A program made the position numbers and the translations under genes. From IMG/VR virus record IMGVR_UViG_2728369393_000012: a DNA stretch of 21,819 nucleotides. One strand, given 5' to 3'. The notes below the pieces were generated by a model that worked only from the letters and a program-made list of their open reading frames with translations, was not told where the DNA came from and ran no database searches. Origin of the DNA: a virus. Lineage: Duplodnaviria; Heunggongvirae; Uroviricota; Caudoviricetes. Of the stretch, positions 9,001 to 17,915 are shown piece after piece. The number at the start of each line of letters is the position of its first letter. The stretch's first letter is position 1.

Positions 9001-9186
9001 AGAACTCACAAGGAAAATGATAGAAGGAAATAACATTAGTGATGTACGCATGGCGCCTCCCGCTAAGTTCTGCAATGATCAAACAGAACTCGCTACGTGC
9101 CCTTAAAACTCGATCATTTAGCCCCTCCAAGGAGGATTCACCATGCGGTTGGTTTTTTAATAAACAGTAAACAAAAAAGTCAAGAA

Positions 9187-9297
9187 TTATTCATTCTGTT
9201 CTTTCATCATCGGCCACAGCAATACCACAATGCCGCAGACCAGAGCGCCATCAGTCAGTACCAACATTATCCTGCTGGTGAAATCCATCATCACCAT
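9187..9297 (-). CDS. Possible small hydrophobic peptide (36 aa, one TM segment)
   Basis: Unlisted short ORF MVMMDFTSRIMLVLTDGALVCGIVVLLWPMMKEQNE; no convincing SD. Confidence 0.2.
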   Translation of the reverse strand: MVMMDFTSRIMLVLTDGALVCGIVVLLWPMMKEQNE

Positions 9298-9430
9298 CAC
9301 TAAAAGCAGGATCACAACAGCAAGCAGACACAGTTTATAAAACAATGTTCAGAAAACGCATTCAGCATGCCTAAGGTTCTATTCCTACGAATAGCCAACT
9401 TGCAACTTAAAATATTATTTATGCAGCCAA

Positions 9431-10147
9431 TTAAATTCTGGTCCTTACAATATCAACCTGAAGATTCTTATCTTGTGCTGATTGATAAATCACAAACCTT
9501 TTACTACCTGCATTGAAAGAAGTAGACAAAACCAGACAATTATCATAACGAGCAAGAACATAATACCAACCATCATTATAATTAATCATTTCATATTCTT
9601 TCTTAAACTGCGGTTTGTAATATCCTGTCAGAAATGAAAAAAGCCAGAAATATGCCACAAAAGCAATCATCACAATCTCAAAAAAATGTTTTTTTATAAA
9701 TGGCTTATCATAGAAGCATGATACCGATAAAAATCGCCCATAAGATCTTATCGAAATTGTAACCGCCAGCGCAATCGCTGCTGACAGTAGCAAAAGAGGT
9801 ACCTGAATCTTCTGTCTCAATATAGAAAACTCAATAATTGCCGGCACAAACAATAATTCCACAGCAAAATAAAGGCGAAATACATTTAGCTCTTGCATAG
9901 AATGTTTTCTTTTCACTGCGAAAAAGAATACAACACCAATACCCCAACCGATAAGAAATATAGCAATGACGATAACTGCAAAAAATAAACTTCTGGCAAC
10001 ATCATCAACACCTGCACCTACAATCCACCATGGGAAGCCGTAGTAAAAAGAAGTACCCCATCCATAGAAATAAGCACTCCCCCATCCAAGGCATCCCATG
10101 TAGGCAATAAAAAGTGAAGAACTCCTGAGCAGCGCACCATCCTTCAT
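9431..10147 (-). CDS. Multi-pass inner-membrane protein of unknown function (238 aa from the Met with a GGGGTGG SD; ORF open to 10189), AT-rich cargo between late promoter and lysis genes
   Basis: Long ORF with several hydrophobic helices and W/Y/F-rich loops; low GC; sits where Stx phages carry stx. Confidence 0.6.
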   Translation of the reverse strand: MKDGALLRSSSLFIAYMGCLGWGSAYFYGWGTSFYYGFPWWIVGAGVDDVARSLFFAVIVIAIFLIGWGIGVVFFFAVKRKHSMQELNVFRLYFAVELLFVPAIIEFSILRQKIQVPLLLLSAAIALAVTISIRSYGRFLSVSCFYDKPFIKKHFFEIVMIAFVAYFWLFSFLTGYYKPQFKKEYEMINYNDGWYYVLARYDNCLVLSTSFNAGSKRFVIYQSAQDKNLQVDIVRTRI

Positions 10148-10355
10148 AACCACCCCAATACAAGATGATAACATTGGCTTACAACTCATAACAAAAGCAA
10201 TTCAATGCCGTCAAGAGGTTACAGGCTAAAAAAACTCTATTACATTGCAGTCAGCATGTTTACTACACAAATACAATTCAGAGCATAAAAACTACTCGGC
10301 GGCAGGTTATTGAGACTCATCAATGACATGTAAAAAACGCCCATTATTGGTGTCA

Positions 10356-10384
10356 AGTTTCCCCAAAGTTATTCAAAAAGTCAA
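10356..10384 (-). promoter_or_regulatory. pR'-like late promoter (-35 TTGACT, 17-bp spacer, -10 GAAACT) with presumed qut region
   Basis: Immediately downstream of Q; resembles lambda pR' (TTGACT-TATTGAATAAAATTGGG-TAAATT) as recalled; the -10 is weak. Confidence 0.4.
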
Positions 10385-10426
10385 TATTATGCCGTTAATA
10401 TGTTGCCATCCGTGGCAATCATGGCG

Positions 10427-11050
10427 CTAACGTGTGATCGCATTCAAAATGTTGTCTGCGATTGACTCTTCCTTGTGGCATTGCACAACCAGAGCGTCAT
10501 ACAGCGGCTTAACAGTGCGTGACCAGGTGGGTTGGGTAAGGTTTGGGATTAGCATCGTCACAGCGCGATATGCGGCGCTTGCTGGCATTCTTGAATAACC
10601 GACGCCTTTACATCTTCCGCACTCTTTCTCAGCAACTATCCCCCACTGCTCTGTTTTGGCTATATCAACCGCACGGCCTGTACCGTGGCAATCTCTGCAT
10701 CTTGCGCCCGGCGTAGCGGCACTACGGCAATAATCCGCATAAGCGAATGTTGCGAGCACTTGCAGTACCTTTGCCTTAGTATTTCCTTCAAGCTTTGCCA
10801 CGCCACGGTATTTCCCCGATACCTTGTGTGCAAATTGCATCAGATAGTTGATAGCCTTTTGTTTGTCGTTCTGGCTGAGTTCGTGCTTACCACAGAATAC
10901 AGCCATTCCGAATCCGGCTTGTGATTGCGCCATCCCCATAGCAGCCATCACATCAGTACCGGAAAGAGAGTCAGAAGCCGTGGCCCGTGGTGAGTCGCTC
11001 ATCATCGGGCTTTTTGGCGAATGAAATTTAGCTACGCTTTCGAGTCTCAT
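10427..11050 (-). CDS. Late-gene antiterminator Q (phage 82/21-type, zinc-binding CRDCHGTG...CGRCKG motifs)
   Basis: 207-aa ORF between ninI and pR'; Cys4 motif typical of Q82-family antiterminators; start overlaps the ninI stop. Confidence 0.75.
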
Positions 11051-11712
11051 GCGCCTTCTCCCTGTACCTGAATCAATGTGAGGTTTCCGCAGAACACTGC
11101 GCCAGTATCGATATACATCTGGTTGGCAAATTTGAGTGGTTTCACTGCTGGCGTATGACCAAAGATGAACGTGTCCGCGCCTTTGATTTCTTTCACGATC
11201 CCGTCTTGTGAGTTGCTGATTCGTTCGCGGTTCCAGATTACCTGCTGATGATCAACTGGCTTTCCAAACTCGTATTTATCACAAGGATAATCGGCGTGGC
11301 AGATGACATATTTTTTTCCTTTACTCACCAGTTCGATGATTAACGGAAGTTCATCTGCTTTATGGGCAAGAGCTTTAGCCAGAATTTCTTTGTCGTAATC
11401 GAGATTAAAGAACCAGCCACCGCCATTAAGCAGCCAGTGATTGACGTTTCCACGCTCTGATAAGCCATCAATCATCATTTGCTCATGGTTTCCACGTACA
11501 GCTCTGAACCAGGGGAATGTGATTAATTCCAGGCATTCTACGTTCTCTGTACCGCGATCAACCAAATCGCCCACCGAGATAAGCAGGTCTTTTTTGGTGT
11601 CGAATCCTATCGTCTCCAGTTTTTTCATCAGGTTCGTGTAGCATCCGTGCAGATCGCCAGCTACCCAAATATTTCGGTATTTGCTGCCATCAATTCTTTC
11701 GTAGATATTCAT
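11047..11712 (-). CDS. ninI: Ser/Thr protein phosphatase NinI (lambda PPase, ORF221)
   Basis: GDLHG, GDLVDRG and GNHE metallophosphatase motifs; near-identical to lambda Nin221 as recalled. Confidence 0.9.
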
Positions 11713-11849
11713 GCAACCTCACTTCTGCTATTTCGCAGGTCTTTGAGTTTCTGTTGGTACTCTGCCTTGATCGCCTTGCACTCTTCGACAGTCCAGCGAT
11801 AGCGGTTATGGTTTGATTCGATTTCGTCTACTGCTTCCTGCCCGATTCG
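11709..11849 (-). pseudogene. ninG: ninG (rap) 3' fragment, last about 45 codons only, no start codon
   Basis: Reads ...[46 protein letters not shown], matching the lambda NinG C-terminus; the upstream frame is closed by a stop and unrelated sequence. Confidence 0.75.
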
Positions 11850-11855
11850 GTTAAC

Positions 11856-12047
11856 GATGAAACCATGCAGGAGATTAACACTCTGCTGATTGCCCTGGAT
11901 AAAACATGGGATGACGACTTATTGCCGCTCTGTTCCCAAATATTTCGCCGCGACATTCGCGCATCGTCAGAACTGACACAGGCCGAAGCAGTGAAAGCTC
12001 TTGGATTACTGAAACAGAAAGCCACTGAGCAGAAGGTGGCAGCATGA
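11856..12047 (+). pseudogene. bet: bet (Red-beta) 3' fragment, last about 63 codons, diverging from the ninG fragment at a deletion junction
   Basis: ...[64 protein letters not shown] matches the lambda Bet C-terminus; the stop overlaps the exo ATG. Confidence 0.8.
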
Positions 12048-12724
12048 CACCGGACATTATCCTGCAGCGTACCGGGATCGACGTGAGAGCTGTCGAACAG
12101 GGGGATGATGCATGGCACAAATTACGGCTCGGCGTCATCACCGCTTCAGAAGTTCACAACGTGATAGCAAAGCCCCGCTCAGGAAAGAAGTGGCCTGACA
12201 TGAAAATGTCCTACTTCCACACCCTGCTGGCTGAGGTTTGCACCGGTGTGGCTCCGGAAGTTAATGCTAAGGCGCTGGCCTGGGGAAAACAGTACGAGAA
12301 CGACGCCAGAACCCTGTTTGAATTCACTTCCGGCGTGAATGTTACTAAATCCCCGATCATCTATCGCGACGAAAGTATGCGCACCGCCTGCTCTCCCGAT
12401 GGTTTATGCAGTGACGGCAACGGCCTTGAACTGAAATGCCCGTTTACCTCCCGGGATTTCATGAAGTTCCGGCTCGGTGGTTTCGAGGCCATAAAATCGG
12501 CTTACATGGCCCAGGTGCAGTACAGCATGTGGGTGACGCGAAAAGATGCCTGGTACTTTGCCAACTATGACCCGCGTATGAAGCGTGAAGGCCTGCATTA
12601 TGTCGTGATTGAGCGGAATGAAAAGTACATGGCGAATTTTGACGAGATGGTGCCGGAGTTCATCGAAAAAATGGACGTGGCACTGGCTGAAATTGGTTTT
12701 GTATTTGGGGAGCAATGGCGATGA
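12044..12724 (+). CDS. exo: Lambda exonuclease (Red-alpha), 226 aa, intact
   Basis: Near-identical to lambda Exo as recalled. Confidence 0.9.
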
Positions 12725-12882
12725 AGCATCCTCACGATAATATCCGGGTAGGCGCGATCACTTTCATCTACTCCGTTACAAAGCGAGGCTGGGTATTTCC
12801 CGGCCTTTCTGTTATCAGAAATCCACTGAAAGCACAGCGGCTGGCTGAGGCGATAAATAATAAACGGGGGCTGTATGACTGA
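12721..12882 (+). CDS. Small phage protein (53 aa), probably lambda orf60a-like
   Basis: Unlisted [27 protein letters not shown]...; ATGA overlap with exo; its stop overlaps the next ATG. Confidence 0.5.
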
Positions 12883-13432
12883 TTTCACCGGAAGCAATAC
12901 TCCTGCCGAACATCGCGACAGCTGGCGCACACCACCAGAGATTTTTGCTGCGCTTAATGCAGAGTTCGTTTTTCAACTTGATGCTGCCGCCAGCGAAAAA
13001 AACCGACTATGTCGGCTTTTTATCTCACAGGAGCAGAACACATTAACCACTTCATGGCCTGAAGCAATGGGATATGCCTCTGGTTATGTCTGGTTGAATC
13101 CACCATACAGCAATATTTCCCCTTTTGTGAAAAAGGCAGCCACTGAAAACAAATTCAGTAGTGTGGGATGTGTAATGTTATTGCCTGCTGACACATCTGT
13201 CGGATGGTTTCATGAAGCGATACAAACCGCCAGTGAGGTCAGATTCATCACAGCAGGACGACTGGCATTTATTAACCCACTCACTGAGAAACCCGTCAGT
13301 GGAAATAATAAAGGCTCGATGCTCATTATCTGGCACCCATACCCCCGTACACACTGCCACTTTACGACCGTTGATCGTGGAGAGTTGATGGCGTTCGGCT
13401 CAAGGATTCTTGCCCGTCGGGAGGCTGCATGA
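12875..13432 (+). CDS. Phage orphan DNA N6-adenine methyltransferase (Dam-like, NPPY motif), 185 aa
   Basis: Catalytic LNPPYS motif; translationally coupled within the exo operon; no restriction-enzyme partner nearby. Confidence 0.7.
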   Translation: MTDFTGSNTPAEHRDSWRTPPEIFAALNAEFVFQLDAAASEKNRLCRLFISQEQNTLTTSWPEAMGYASGYVWLNPPYSNISPFVKKAATENKFSSVGCVMLLPADTSVGWFHEAIQTASEVRFITAGRLAFINPLTEKPVSGNNKGSMLIIWHPYPRTHCHFTTVDRGELMAFGSRILARREAA

Positions 13433-13512
13433 CAACCACGGAATGCATTTTTCTGGCAGCGGGCTTCATATTCTGTGTGCTTATGCTTGCCGACATGGGA
13501 CTTGTTCAATGA
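13429..13512 (+). CDS. Small hydrophobic peptide (27 aa, MTTTECIFLAAGFIFCVLMLADMGLVQ)
   Basis: ATGA overlaps at both ends tie it into the operon; single predicted TM helix. Confidence 0.35.
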   Translation: MTTTECIFLAAGFIFCVLMLADMGLVQ

Positions 13513-13724
13513 CACCTCAGCAGGAAAACGCCCTTCGCAGCATTGCCCGTCAGGCTAATTCTGAAATCAAAAAAGCCAGACAGCAGTTTCCGGATAAAAA
13601 CGTCGATGACATTTGCCGTAGCGTACTGAAGAAGCACCGCGAAACGGTAACGCTGATGGGATTCACACCGACTCACTTAAGTCTGGCAATCGGTATGTTA
13701 AACGGCGTCTTTAAGGAACGGTGA
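13509..13724 (+). CDS. Hypothetical small phage protein (71 aa from MTPQQENALR...)
   Basis: The listed ORF 13410..13724 overlaps the methyltransferase; the coupled ATG at 13509 is the likelier start. Confidence 0.5.
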   Translation: MTPQQENALRSIARQANSEIKKARQQFPDKNVDDICRSVLKKHRETVTLMGFTPTHLSLAIGMLNGVFKER

Positions 13725-13746
13725 ACATGAAAAGCAAAATCATCAG

Positions 13747-13768
13747 GGAGCCACAGGCTCCTTTTTTA
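13747..13768 (+). terminator. Hairpin terminator (GGAGCC-ACAG-GGCTCC-TTTTTT)
   Basis: Perfect 6-bp GC-rich stem plus T6 immediately after the preceding ORF. Confidence 0.6.
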
Positions 13769-13822
13769 TTATTCGCATTCACCCTCAAGCGTATTAACCA
13801 ACAATTCAGGGATTAATGAAAG

Positions 13823-14044
13823 ATGGCGGACATCATTGATTCAGCATCAGAAATTGAAGAATTACAGCGCAATACAGCAATAAAAATGCGTCGTCTGAAC
13901 TACCAGACTATATCCGCCACTCATTGTTGTGAGTGTGGCGATCCCATAGATGAACGAAGACGCCTGGTCGTTCAGGGTTGTCGGACTTGTGCAAGTTGCC
14001 AGGAAGATCTGGAGCTTATCAGTAAACAGAGAGGTTCGAAGTGA
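13823..14044 (+). CDS. TraR/DksA-family C4 zinc-finger protein (lambda orf73-like), 73 aa
   Basis: CxxC...CxxC motif and acidic N-terminal helix typical of TraR; position equivalent to lambda orf73. Confidence 0.7.
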   Translation: MADIIDSASEIEELQRNTAIKMRRLNYQTISATHCCECGDPIDERRRLVVQGCRTCASCQEDLELISKQRGSK

Positions 14045-14742
14045 GCGAAATTAACTATCAGGCACTACGTGAGATAGCAAAACAGGCAACACAGGGCGAA
14101 TGGGTCGCGTTTATTTCGACGGGTACAGGTACGTATGCTGTGCATACGCCCGGTGATAAACGATGTGAAGATGTTATCAAATGGACCGGCTTTGATGGAC
14201 TGAAAAACGCAGAGAACAACGCTCGTTATGTTGCCGCATTCAACCCAAAGGTTGCACTGGAGCTACTGGGTGAAATTAAGCGCCTGGAGGACACAAATAT
14301 TGATGCTATGTGCCGAATAGCACCGCTTGAGACTAAGCTCGCGGCTCTGGTGGCAGAGAACGCCGGGCTGAAACACGCAATGGCTGTAACTCTTGATCAT
14401 GTGTCGGTCACGGATGCAGGGCAGGCCGGAGTTGCTGCAATGATTATCAACGATGCCCTACACCACAGCGAAACTCCAGCTACCGATGCTTTTCTGGCTG
14501 AAATTCGTGCGGAAGCACGCAACGAGGGGATTAACTATACCGCCAGCCGTCTTGCTGCTGCGTTCAATCACGGATTTATCAATAAGTCTTTGCGTGAAGT
14601 TTTCGACGTTACGCGCATGATTCTGTCAGCGAAAGAAGAGTTGGCTAATGAACCGTACCCGATTGATGGCCTGTCCGGTGAATATGCGGAGAAATCCCTT
14701 GAAGAATGGGCGGAACAGATTCGCAAAGGAGTTCAGTCATGA
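14041..14742 (+). CDS. Hypothetical phage protein (233 aa), possibly Ead/Ea22-like
   Basis: Position equivalent to the lambda ea22 region; GTG start overlapping the upstream stop; family call from memory only. Confidence 0.5.
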   Translation: MSEINYQALREIAKQATQGEWVAFISTGTGTYAVHTPGDKRCEDVIKWTGFDGLKNAENNARYVAAFNPKVALELLGEIKRLEDTNIDAMCRIAPLETKLAALVAENAGLKHAMAVTLDHVSVTDAGQAGVAAMIINDALHHSETPATDAFLAEIRAEARNEGINYTASRLAAAFNHGFINKSLREVFDVTRMILSAKEELANEPYPIDGLSGEYAEKSLEEWAEQIRKGVQS

Positions 14743-14900
14743 GCATCCGAACTGAACATGGATTTGGTCCTTCAACAGTCGAAGTCGACTGGCTTGATGA
14801 TTGCCCTAAGTGCCAGCACGGCAAAGCCAAGGTAACAGGATGGTCAGTAACCAAAGATTCTTTGTGGGCGGGTGATGAGGTCGTCTGTTCCAAATGCGGT
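14739..14900 (+). pseudogene. Small zinc-ribbon protein gene (CPKC...CSKCG), 3' end disrupted by IS911
   Basis: ATGA-coupled ORF that runs into the IS911 terminus at 14901. Confidence 0.5.
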
Positions 14901-14908
14901 TGTAGTGG

Positions 14909-16076
<1,168 letters not shown>

Positions 16077-16206
16077 TGGAGCACCTGTGTTGTTCTGAGG
16101 TGAGCATATCACCTCTGTTCAGGTGGCCAAATTCAGTGCGCCACTACAGTTACCTGATGAAGAGCACGAAGGCGAAACATTCAATGAATGTCCACTTAGC
16201 TGGGGA

Positions 16207-16413
16207 ATGAGCGTCGAACAGTACGTTTCCGAGTTTCGCAAATGCCTGGCTGAAGTACGGGCACAGGGGGTAGAGATGTACGCAGATAACCTCGACAACG
16301 GAGCAGACGACGCAGAACGAGGTGATTTTGATGATGCCGTTAAGTTTCTACGCAGTGAAGCGTCTGGTGTACGTTTGTTCGCCGACCAGCTTCGCAAAGG
16401 AGGCAACCAGTGA
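16207..16413 (+). CDS. Small acidic hypothetical protein (68 aa from MSVEQYVSEF...); may instead be the C-terminal part of the IS911-interrupted gene
   Basis: The open frame starts at the IS boundary (16150) and has a GGGGA SD before the ATG at 16207; the exact pre-insertion junction is ambiguous. Confidence 0.35.
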   Translation: MSVEQYVSEFRKCLAEVRAQGVEMYADNLDNGADDAERGDFDDAVKFLRSEASGVRLFADQLRKGGNQ

Positions 16414-16493
16414 CTGGACATGCAGCAATCCTCGACATGTGCTGTGGCAGTCGCATGTTCTGGTTAGATAAGAATGACGAACGGGCGAGATAA
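16410..16493 (+). pseudogene. Possible N-terminal remnant (27 codons) of a methyltransferase-like gene, motif ILDMCCGS
   Basis: GTG-initiated short ORF with a SAM-binding motif-I-like sequence, ending where the AT-rich cargo begins. Confidence 0.2.
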
Positions 16494-16543
16494 GCGATCG
16501 GTTAAGTGCTATAGTATTGCGCTTTTGTATTTATGGAGTGAAT

Positions 16544-17242
16544 ATGAAAAATATCCTACTGGCATCATTGTTAGTGGCATCGCCGGGTGCATTTGCAGCC
16601 AGCTTTGACTGCCAAAAGGCTTCGACAGCAATCGAACATAAAATCTGCGATAACGAACGTCTGTCAAAATTAGACGAACAGCTTAGCTCTGCCTATTCTA
16701 GTGCCCTCAAAGGAAACCCAGAGAACGCAGACACCCTAAAAATGGTTCAACGTCAGTGGGTAAATATGCGTGGAAAACTCACTGATAATAAGGCTCTGGA
16801 GCTGGCTTATCTTATCCAAATTAATGGCCTCAAAGGTTTGGGGAGTTCAGTCAGCGTAACAGCGGCCAATGACATACCCACGTCGGCGCAGAAACATTCT
16901 GAAGAGCAGGAAGAAACAAGTAAGGCAGAAGCTAAGTCGGTCAAGAACGGCAATGAGCTAACCTTAGAGTCATTCCGAGCTAAATATGTAGAAGTAGATG
17001 GTGAGTATTACAGCACGACATCCATTCCTAGAGGCAGTTCGTTCTTGTTCACTTGCGCCAGTCGTATTGCTGATGACCAAGTGAATATTTGGAAGAAACA
17101 GGCAGCCAAAGAGGGCAAAATCGACCTATTCTTTGAGGTTGAGAATCACTTACACACGGCCATGTTGAACGCCAATTTTCAGAAGTTGAATTCAGCCCCT
17201 GCCAAAAGAGGTATTTGTAATCTGATTAACGCAGTGCCGTAA
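16544..17242 (+). CDS. Secreted DUF1311 (LprI-like) domain protein, 232 aa with cleavable signal peptide (MKNILLASLLVASPGAFA)
   Basis: GGAG SD 5 nt before the ATG; DUF1311-like pattern FDCQKASTAIEHKICDNERLSKLDEQL...VQRQW; AT-rich; terminator follows. Confidence 0.65.
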   Translation: MKNILLASLLVASPGAFAASFDCQKASTAIEHKICDNERLSKLDEQLSSAYSSALKGNPENADTLKMVQRQWVNMRGKLTDNKALELAYLIQINGLKGLGSSVSVTAANDIPTSAQKHSEEQEETSKAEAKSVKNGNELTLESFRAKYVEVDGEYYSTTSIPRGSSFLFTCASRIADDQVNIWKKQAAKEGKIDLFFEVENHLHTAMLNANFQKLNSAPAKRGICNLINAVP

Positions 17243-17251
17243 GTAAATTTA

Positions 17252-17282
17252 GGGCCACAGTTGTGGCCTTAAATATTTTTTT
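17252..17282 (+). terminator. Hairpin terminator (GGGCCACAG-TTGTGGCC then T-run)
   Basis: 8-bp stem followed by TTAAATATTTTTTT. Confidence 0.5.
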
Positions 17283-17440
17283 CAGCCTTTTCTTATTTGT
17301 AATAAGCAGTACTTGGTAGTGCTTATAAAACAGAATAAAAAACATATGACTTTGGCGATTACCCAGTAAAGATATTTGAAATAAATGTAAATATCGACAA
17401 TGAATAACTATCCTCGCACTCGCGGGATTTCTTTTATCTG

Positions 17441-17465
17441 AACTCGCTACGGCGAGTTTTGTTTT
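17441..17465 (+). promoter_or_regulatory. Hairpin plus T-run (AACTCGC-TACG-GCGAGTT-TTGTTTT) directly upstream of the next RBS; possible attenuator
   Basis: Inverted repeat ending 3 nt before the GGAG SD of the following gene. Confidence 0.3.
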
Positions 17466-17477
17466 ATGGAGATGATT

Positions 17478-17777
17478 ATGGCCTGTTCAACATTCAACCC
17501 TCTAACGTTACAGAAATACCAGCCAGACCCTGAAGATTTATGCTCACTGTGTGGCGGAAATCATGGCAAAGCCGCCATGATCGAATGTAAAGACAAAATC
17601 CACATTTGCCTTAATTGCGTTGATGTCCTCGTTGATATCAAAAATGAGAGAGAAGATAAAAAGCGTAGCGAGGCTGTTCGCGCCTTAGATTCATGGATGC
17701 GAGATGGGTATAGTGCCGCGCAAATTTATGACTTAGCAATATCAAAAGGCGAAATACCAGGAGTGCGCATCGAATAA
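17478..17777 (+). CDS. Small zinc-ribbon protein (99 aa; CxxC-x17-CxxC), function unknown
   Basis: GGAG SD 6 nt upstream of the third in-frame ATG (ORF open from 17466); bracketed by hairpins. Confidence 0.55.
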   Translation: MACSTFNPLTLQKYQPDPEDLCSLCGGNHGKAAMIECKDKIHICLNCVDVLVDIKNEREDKKRSEAVRALDSWMRDGYSAAQIYDLAISKGEIPGVRIE

Positions 17778-17818
17778 GACGTAACCAATATTCGAATTGA
17801 AGAACTGAAAGAACACCA

Positions 17819-17841
17819 AGCCGCCTGATGGCGGTTTTTTC
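17819..17841 (+). terminator. Hairpin terminator (GCCGCC-TGAT-GGCGG-TTTTTT) upstream of the xis RBS
   Basis: GC stem plus T-run. Confidence 0.6.
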
Positions 17842-17915
17842 TTGCGTGTAATTGCGGAGACTTTGCGATGTATGAGGTGTACTGGCAATAGCGGACACTA
17901 CCATTTGTTCTTTTT

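Follow-up and report, generated by a model that had tools for sequence, protein, structure and literature searches.

In Mycobacterium tuberculosis, the LprI protein joins a DUF1311 domain to an MliC lysozyme-inhibitor domain (PMC7933661). Salmonella ScwA, a DUF1311-only protein, shows no lysozyme-resistance phenotype but changes the levels of MltD and other hydrolases (PMC7933661). Etsi4, a DUF1311 immunity protein of a type VI secretion system (T6SS), rescues from a periplasm-acting T6SS effector (PMC12981562), and DUF1311 genes flank WHIX effectors (PMC12135965). In phage lambda, the genes and predicted terminators upstream of the excisionase gene run in the order ea22, ea8.5, t3/t4, orf55, t5, xis. 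Modelling of Orf55 gave an alpha/beta protein resembling T7 Gp2, and 'a portion of orf55' has been described near xis in phage 933W (PMC8614690). Here we examine a viral DNA of 21,819 nucleotides (IMG/VR record IMGVR_UViG_2728369393_000012; the window), in which a block at 16410-17860 carries two small genes, one for a 232-amino-acid (aa) DUF1311 protein and one for a 99-aa zinc protein. Its location is the distal, variable portion of the lambdoid segment referred to in the literature as the exo-xis region, a recognised hot spot of module exchange. A sequence-only reading had described the two genes as an AT-rich cargo cassette. We consider it likely that the interval is instead a patchwork holding two independent accessory genes, a DUF1311 moron and a zinc-finger gene, with the roles proposed below.

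The DUF1311 gene and the zinc gene are separable, independent accessory modules and do not form a cassette. Among 5426 complete Escherichia coli genomes, the reference set for all genome counts given here, the DUF1311 gene is present in 124 (at 108 places in chromosomes and 17 in plasmids, with about 83-84% identity for the plasmid copies) and the zinc gene in 310, while at least 80% of the whole block is found in 12 and about 12 have the two genes next to each other. Most chromosomal copies of the DUF1311 gene (about 90%), as well as the copy in phage ev099, are followed by a lambda-type orf55, and about 96% of zinc-gene copies are without a DUF1311 gene. In 933W, VT2-Sakai and many other Shiga toxin (Stx) phages, the zinc gene comes after an ASCH-domain gene and no DUF1311 gene is present. 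Distant homologues of either gene never bring the other: Salmonella phage SSU5 has the DUF1311 module alone, in an unrelated neighbourhood, and the Enterobacter and Klebsiella homologues of the zinc gene are without a DUF1311 gene. Within the window the two genes are separated by three terminator-like hairpins and the remnant of an unrelated gene, and each has its own replacement junctions.

On the left, the junction falls in the last ~12 codons of an ead/Ea22-like gene remnant (from about position 16377) and is common to a P22-like prophage. The stub that follows, in which a methyltransferase-like motif had been noticed, is a genuine remnant of a class I S-adenosylmethionine (SAM)-dependent methyltransferase gene. 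A 106-nt probe spanning 16395-16500 is covered over at least 80% of its length in 944 E. coli genomes and, near-identical DUF1311-type loci aside, the matches listed (82-95% identical) are the 5' ends of annotated genes of this class. One complete example has 161 codons and begins VTGHAAILDMCCGSRMFWFDKNDDRA. Homology between the stub and the methyltransferase gene stops at about 16489, within a stretch of ~25 nt that also resembles the SSU5 sequence upstream of its DUF1311 gene; a break inside this shared stretch indicates recombination at microhomology. Comparison with SSU5 and with a 109-kb Kluyvera contig (84% DNA identity) places the limits of the DUF1311 module at about 16476 and 17282, a length of ~800 bp. 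The module replaced most of the methyltransferase gene and occupies the position of ea8.5 in lambda. The suggestion that cargo had replaced an ancestral gene is thus borne out by the methyltransferase stub, and two further remnants, the 3' ends of an ASCH-domain gene and of lambda orf55, point the same way.

On the right, the zinc gene replaced the body of orf55 (lambdap35) precisely between its Shine-Dalgarno sequence and first codons on one side and its 3' end on the other. It therefore has the same place as orf55 in lambda, between the predicted terminators t3/t4 and t5 and directly before xis; the zinc protein itself is unrelated to Orf55 in sequence, and all that is left of orf55 are its Shine-Dalgarno sequence, first codons and last 16 codons, which flank the zinc gene. 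The t3/t4 hairpins directly upstream of the zinc gene are part of a backbone common to lambda, 933W and ev099, and by their sequence both these and the hairpin after the zinc gene are lambda backbone, not cargo. In the window, t3 (17413-17426) is one nucleotide short (CTCGC-GGG) when set against the copies in lambda, 933W, ev099 and the further E. coli sequences compared, and this 1-nt deletion shortens the stem. The flanks of this slot, 17398-17472 (t3/t4 and the Shine-Dalgarno sequence) and 17777-17860 (the orf55 3' end and t5), are found in most of the ~2700 of the 5426 genomes with a partial match to the block, and the open reading frames (ORFs) between them vary, with orf55 in most of the rows sampled, the zinc gene (L0063 in 933W) in ~310 genomes, and others. 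These flanks look like fixed boundaries for module exchange. The features of the interval and of its immediate surroundings are collected in Table 1.

Table 1. Features of the two-gene interval and its borders (window positions)
Feature	Position	Strand	Evidence or remark
DUF1311 module (moron): leader, coding sequence, terminator	16476..17282	+	homology limits against SSU5 and Kluyvera contig
DUF1311-protein coding sequence, 232 aa	16544..17242	+	Pfam LprI/DUF1311; PHROG 4675
Extended -10-like motif TGCTATAGT	16507..16515	+	29 nt upstream of ATG; putative promoter function
Intrinsic terminator-like hairpin, 12-bp stem and T-run	17247-17284	+	ends DUF1311 module; conserved in SSU5 and Kluyvera
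Zinc-protein coding sequence, 99 aa (103 aa from start 17466)	17478..17777	+	identical to 933W L0063; PHROG 3680
Two tandem terminator-like hairpins, lambda predicted t3 and t4	17413..17466	+	terminator scan; PMC4195576 Table 4
Terminator-like hairpin, lambda predicted t5	17818..17847	+	just before xis; terminator scan; PMC4195576 Table 4
Class I SAM-dependent methyltransferase gene, 27-codon 5' stub	16410..16493	+	sequence matches to annotated methyltransferase genes
ASCH-domain gene remnant, 933W L0064-like, last 18 codons and stop (FGDYPVKIFEINVNIDNE, stop)	17351..17407	+	tblastn 72% identity, E 1.3e-5
Lambda orf55 remnant, last 16 codons and stop (DVTNIRIEELKEHQAA, stop), now non-coding	17778..17828	+	100% identity
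ead/Ea22-like gene, 3' remnant	16123..16413	+	PHROG 492/368 matches confined to C-terminal part; full gene in strain 2014C-3011
IS3-family transposase ORFs	14909..16112	-	orfA 15774..16112, orfB 14909..15586 and frameshift; RefSeq IS3 family transposase, programmed frameshift
IS600, 1264 bp	17873-19136	-	inserted right after xis ATG (17868-17870)

Both ORFs of the sequence-only reading are present where it had placed them, and each has, as claimed, its own Shine-Dalgarno sequence, a GGAG 5-6 nt before the ATG (16535-16538 for the DUF1311 gene, 17468-17471 for the zinc gene). Hairpins also lie 3' of both genes, although the one after the zinc gene belongs to the backbone. A scan of 1.8 kb gave 6 terminator-like sites where 1.7 were expected. 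The claim of a low GC content applies only mildly to the block as a whole (42.9%, against 47.1% for the window and 45.2% for int), and composition is markedly low only in the intergenic stretch 17243-17477 (33.6%). An Rfam scan of 16000-18000 at E <= 1 gave no RNA family.

The DUF1311 module resembles lambdoid morons in that promoter-like and terminator signals accompany a gene that lies between backbone genes and is present or absent among otherwise similar prophages. It has its own terminator and is polymorphic for presence with defined junctions; only the DUF1311 gene fits the definition, whereas the zinc gene is a slot replacement inside the pL operon. In the leader common to the window, SSU5 and Kluyvera, the only position of GGTTAAGTGnTATAGT that varies is n (C, A or T). 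An extended -10 element would be expected to vary in just this way, which would make the motif a candidate promoter. Between the terminator of the module and the ASCH-gene remnant lie 66 bp (17283-17348) with 28.8% GC that contain an imperfect inverted repeat, recognised by eye, of the form ATAAGCAGTAC TTG GTAGTGCTTAT; the lambdoid copies compared all have this 66-bp stretch, whereas SSU5 lacks it.

The 232-aa protein consists of a signal peptide (residues 1-18), a DUF1311-type helical N-domain (~19-100), a linker (101-136) and a C-domain (137-232). That it is secreted, as had been proposed, is supported by a predicted Sec-type signal peptide, MKNILLASLLVASPGAFA|AS, with an A-x-A cleavage motif, AFA|A, and, on reading the sequence, no lipobox; the signal peptide is conserved in all relatives. 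Each domain has one conserved pair of cysteines (Cys23 and Cys35, Cys171 and Cys225), which fits a periplasmic protein. Assignment to the DUF1311 family, which a profile search was to check, is confirmed by a Pfam match to LprI/DUF1311 (PF07007) above the gathering cut-off (25.3 versus 22 bits, E 2.1e-5, residues 23-78), and precomputed PF07007 matches are present on nearly all relatives. The AlphaFold2 (AF2) model has two confident domains (means over 10-residue blocks of the predicted local distance difference test, pLDDT, of 76-94, most at least 82) joined by a disordered linker (<50), and shows a small helical-bundle fold like that of solved DUF1311 proteins. Ratios of nonsynonymous to synonymous change (dN/dS) between the window and SSU5 are 0.08 and 0.07 for the N- and C-domains, respectively, and 0.85 for the linker; hence, both domains are under strong purifying selection.

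An exhaustive HMMER search returned 5013 representatives at E <= 1e-3, nearly all on residues ~5-100 only. These N-domain matches lie in proteins of 100-980 aa with many architectures, several copies being present in some. Full-length matches amount to a handful (27-40% identity), and the close full-length relatives are mostly on contigs of 105-111 kb, the size of SSU5-like phage-plasmids. A scan of genome contigs added only one more contig of phage-plasmid size and two N-domain-only matches, and the distant full-length relatives lie on short contigs that give little genomic context. The protein thus differs from PF07007 proteins such as Pseudomonas putida PP0307 (PDB 3GI7) and M. tuberculosis LprI in adding a 96-aa C-domain found only in a narrow phage and plasmid family. 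This private C-domain, for which structural matches are only to generic helical bundles, probably sets target specificity. PDB sequence searches made domain by domain gave nothing, and the one NCBIfam match (CpoB, 17 bits) is sub-threshold and meaningless. PHROG 4675, which matches the protein over its full length, and PHROG 3680, which holds the zinc protein, are both catalogued as function unknown; both proteins therefore belong to catalogued families, and their sequences are already annotated in RefSeq.

RefSeq names the 232-aa protein a 'lysozyme inhibitor LprI family protein', and the sequence-only reading had likewise tied its fold to lysozyme inhibition. Such an activity is not implied. 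Unlike in M. tuberculosis LprI, MliC is absent: Pfam gave no MliC, PliC or Ivy-type inhibitor domain, and at E <= 1 neither PF09864 (MliC) nor any other further match. DUF1311-only ScwA is without a lysozyme phenotype (PMC7933661). 'Lysozyme inhibitor' is, for this protein, merely a family label. ScwA (SL1344_0490) is a horizontally acquired, low-GC, periplasmic DUF1311 protein with two disulfides (PMC7933661), a description that would also suit the window protein; it differs in being chromosomal and 275 aa long with a C-terminal DUF1311 domain (residues 185-271), where the window protein is phage-borne and has the domain at its N-terminus. Etsi4 is a small DUF1311-type protein thought to be periplasmic, and is an example of the domain neutralising a toxin aimed at the cell wall (PMC12981562). 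Its likely gene in strain Sakai is ECs_0213 (Pfam LprI, 18.7 bits). Etsi4, however, has 149 aa and adjoins its effector in a T6SS cluster, while the window gene is prophage-borne. By analogy with these proteins, membership of the DUF1311 family suggests a role at the cell wall and in the periplasm; the most economical guess would be that the protein neutralises a peptidoglycan-active enzyme in the manner of an immunity protein. The roles suggested previously, in blocking hydrolases of incoming phages or in inter-bacterial competition, would be reasonable guesses at the level of the family.

The zinc protein has the motif C22-x2-C25-x18-C44-x2-C47, and the four cysteines that had marked it as a Cys4 protein do not vary among the members of its family. 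Conservation is high over the N-terminal ~60 residues (YQPDPEDLCSLCGGNxGKAAMIExKDKIHICxxCVDLL..IK.ER), whereas the middle varies; the C-terminus reads IYDAIxxGKIPxIRID. Searches of Pfam and of the PDB, by sequence and by profile, recovered a single family, the N-terminal C4 zinc finger of ClpX. PF06689 (ClpX C4 zinc finger) matches with 15.7 bits (E 0.014) and heads the Pfam matches of 19 of the 21 family members, in each case below the threshold (best E 0.0013). All five matches of a profile search of the PDB are ClpX (E 0.024), and an hhalign comparison with residues 14-51 of E. coli ClpX gives a probability of 91.5% with identical cysteine spacing. The zinc protein shares with the ClpX N-domain (PDB 2DS7, 1OVX) the C-x2-C-x18-C-x2-C spacing and a CSxCG...ICxxCVD..xxI motif, and differs from it in standing alone, with no AAA+ module. 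Given these matches, membership of the ClpX C4 zinc-finger family is likely, though unproven in view of the sub-threshold scores and a poor model. Matches to the NCBIfam ClpX equivalogs (17 bits, cut-offs ~360-370) are meaningless. Homology to the homeodomain/zinc-finger hybrid Ea8.5 of lambda was also considered and rejected (hhalign 0.5%), the Ea8.5 slot being taken by the DUF1311 gene. A literature search found no published function or model for L0063, and nothing relevant on a phage mimic of a ClpX domain.

What has been shown is the anatomy of the interval with its remnants, the limits of the modules, their distribution and the constraint on the DUF1311 protein; promoter use, expression timing and both biochemical roles we infer as follows. 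The DUF1311 gene would be expressed in lysogens from its own putative promoter. Its product would be exported by Sec to the periplasm, where the two folded, constrained domains, joined by a free linker, may bind and neutralise, or modulate, a peptidoglycan-active enzyme, conferring an immunity-type protection distinct from general lysozyme inhibition. The zinc gene has two terminator-like hairpins just upstream of its Shine-Dalgarno sequence and no detectable promoter; by the logic of the lambda operon it would therefore be read only by N-antiterminated pL transcripts, in early lytic growth. Its product would be a cytoplasmic protein with a ClpX-N-domain-like C4 finger, most likely engaged in protein-protein contacts during induction. 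In the window prophage pL and N have been lost; hence, the zinc gene is probably silent here, and it is likely that only the DUF1311 gene is expressed.

Several observations weigh against this reading. The two genes lie adjacent in two prophage backbones, one lambda-like at ybhC and one P22-like at torS, so that the pair has moved together at least once; this joint movement is explained by ordinary mosaic recombination. For the DUF1311 protein, the PF07007 match spans only positions 1-70 of the 106 in the profile and leaves the second canonical cysteine pair unaligned, and Foldseek and PDB sequence searches gave the C-domain no structural or sequence relatives outside its family. The extended -10 motif is a single match in the window where 0.48 would be expected by chance, and is not significant alone; a generic sigma-70 promoter scan of 16100-17920 gave no promoter. 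Kinship with Etsi4 is rejected at the sequence level (BLASTP against ECs_0213, E 8.7), and no effector gene lies near the DUF1311 gene, whose neighbours are only phage genes and insertion sequence (IS) elements; neither the sequence kinship nor the adjoining cognate effector of a T6SS immunity protein was thus found, although the protein may still serve as an orphan immunity factor. ScwA shows, moreover, that a DUF1311 protein may act on the levels of host hydrolases and not as an inhibitor (PMC7933661). For the zinc protein, all ClpX-type matches are below the Pfam cut-off (15.7 versus 27 bits), the AF2 model is poor (mean pLDDT 68, predicted template modelling score 0.41), and a Foldseek search of this model against the PDB gave no match at E < 1.

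It is also possible, though in our view unlikely, that the zinc protein is unrelated to ClpX and acts as a small DNA-binding regulator or as an accessory factor for recombination directionality together with Xis and Int. The gene keeps a position 0-2 genes upstream of xis-int in E. coli, Enterobacter and Klebsiella prophages; the Enterobacter and Klebsiella homologues (50-60% identity) are always one or two genes upstream and are associated with three excisionase types. In its C-terminal IYDAIxxGKIPxIRID segment (17718-17777) there is a similarity to TorI/AlpA-type excisionases, at their recognition helix and wing. This similarity, however, is weak and no more than a lead: it reaches only 26% in hhalign over 14 columns, with a TorI query that was itself approximate. 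Pfam gave no helix-turn-helix match. Moreover, lambda and most of its relatives excise without the zinc gene, with orf55 filling the slot, and the conserved position may merely reflect a recombination hot spot.

Two other accounts concern the DUF1311 protein, and we regard each as rather improbable. In the first, it would be a superinfection-exclusion factor that inhibits, in the periplasm, the cell-wall hydrolases which incoming phages carry in the virion or release, by analogy with T4 Spackle, which blocks the gp5 lysozyme. Several features agree with such a role: only temperate elements, namely lambdoid prophages and SSU5-type phage-plasmids, carry the gene; its promoter-like and terminator signals make it autonomous in the way that is usual for genes expressed in lysogens; its product has a predicted periplasmic address; and the family name is tied to lysozyme inhibition. 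The absence of an MliC, PliC or Ivy-type inhibitor domain and the lack of a lysozyme phenotype in ScwA do not, nor does PADLOC, which gave no defence-system model for either protein of the block; a broad periplasmic lysozyme inhibitor could, in addition, hamper the endolysin of the phage that carries it. The protein could alternatively tune the cell-wall enzymes of its host as ScwA does, by changing how abundant or how stable lytic transglycosylases and amidases are, without blocking foreign enzymes. ScwA is the sole DUF1311-only enterobacterial protein with experimental data, and its two disulfides have a counterpart in the two conserved cysteine pairs of the window protein. The architectures of the two proteins differ, however, the DUF1311 domain of the window protein being followed by an unrelated domain, and no homology to ScwA has been seen outside the DUF1311 domain, where none was tested.

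A single functional cassette, in which a secreted effector or inhibitor and a cytoplasmic zinc-ribbon partner or regulator were acquired and work together, is very improbable given the distribution, junctions and intervening terminators described above, even though the genes are adjacent and co-oriented in the window and the same pair is 99.2-99.8% identical in the lambda-like and P22-like backbones.

Returning to the preferred reading of two independent modules, their setting is a decayed lambdoid prophage of ~20 kb (~500-20450) that lies between ybhB (1-477) and ybhC (20536 onward), in the lambda attachment region. The prophage retains exo, an orf60a-like gene, a Dam-type methylase gene, an orf73/TraR homologue, ea22-like genes, xis and int. 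Almost no morphogenesis genes are left, and N, cI, cro, O and P are all absent from the gene content of the window; at about 11850 the 3' fragments of NinG and Bet directly adjoin each other. Two genes for effectors of a type III secretion system are present, EspJ (981-1634) and NleG (2533-3183). The closest public genome, that of E. coli CFSAN004176, is near-identical to the window. At 3150-5900 the window has two tandem IS600 copies with orfA and orfB in each, whereas CFSAN004176 has one complete and one partial copy; this difference of ~415 bp implies that the window comes from a slightly different strain or assembly.

Four IS3-family copies are present in the prophage, and two IS elements, both overlooked previously, bracket the block. 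The IS3-family element on the left breaks the ea-like gene region upstream of the block (the range in Table 1 is that of the transposase ORFs and not of the IS ends). A small Cys4 zinc-ribbon ORF at 14706-15011, after the first ead/Ea22-like gene and overlapping its 3' end, matches Zn_ribbon_IS1595 and Lar weakly and seems to have been cut by this insertion. On the right, IS600 splits xis and is flanked by a 3-bp target duplication, GTA, at 17870-17872 and 19137-19139. Hence, the block is not next to xis, as had been stated, but is parted from the body of the gene by the whole of IS600. An insertion just after the ATG severs the native translation start of xis, and excision of the window prophage is probably impaired. 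The RefSeq 'excisionase' (19111..19353) begins at a GTG within the end of IS600.

In summary, the present value of these results is mostly corrective: there is no cassette, 'lysozyme inhibitor' is a label only, and the interval is a textbook case of module swapping at conserved exo-xis boundaries. Of modest interest are a DUF1311 moron that is common to lambdoid prophages and SSU5-type phage-plasmids and has a private, tightly constrained C-domain, and the ClpX-N-domain-like finger of L0063, whose place beside xis-int is conserved among Stx and other prophages. A bolder proposal, to which we would give little credence, is that the L0063-family protein, made from the end of the pL operon, mimics the ClpX N-domain as a protein of its own, which would pair with the N-domain of ClpX or capture clients and adaptors (lambda O-type initiators, SspB-like tails) and so reprogram ClpXP proteolysis at induction; separately, the DUF1311 C-domain could represent a new type of immunity module that acts against hydrolases in the periplasm and passes between lambdoid prophages and SSU5-type phage-plasmids. 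If our reading is true, the DUF1311 module would be a lysogenic-conversion gene that shields enterobacterial lysogens from cell-wall-degrading attack, and the protected lysogens would include strains of the enterohaemorrhagic and enteropathogenic E. coli (EHEC/EPEC) type as well as bacteria that harbour SSU5-like phage-plasmids. The L0063 family, which occurs in 933W and other Stx phages, would give the phage a means of influencing proteolysis in the host or the control of excision at induction, the step that governs the release of Shiga toxin.

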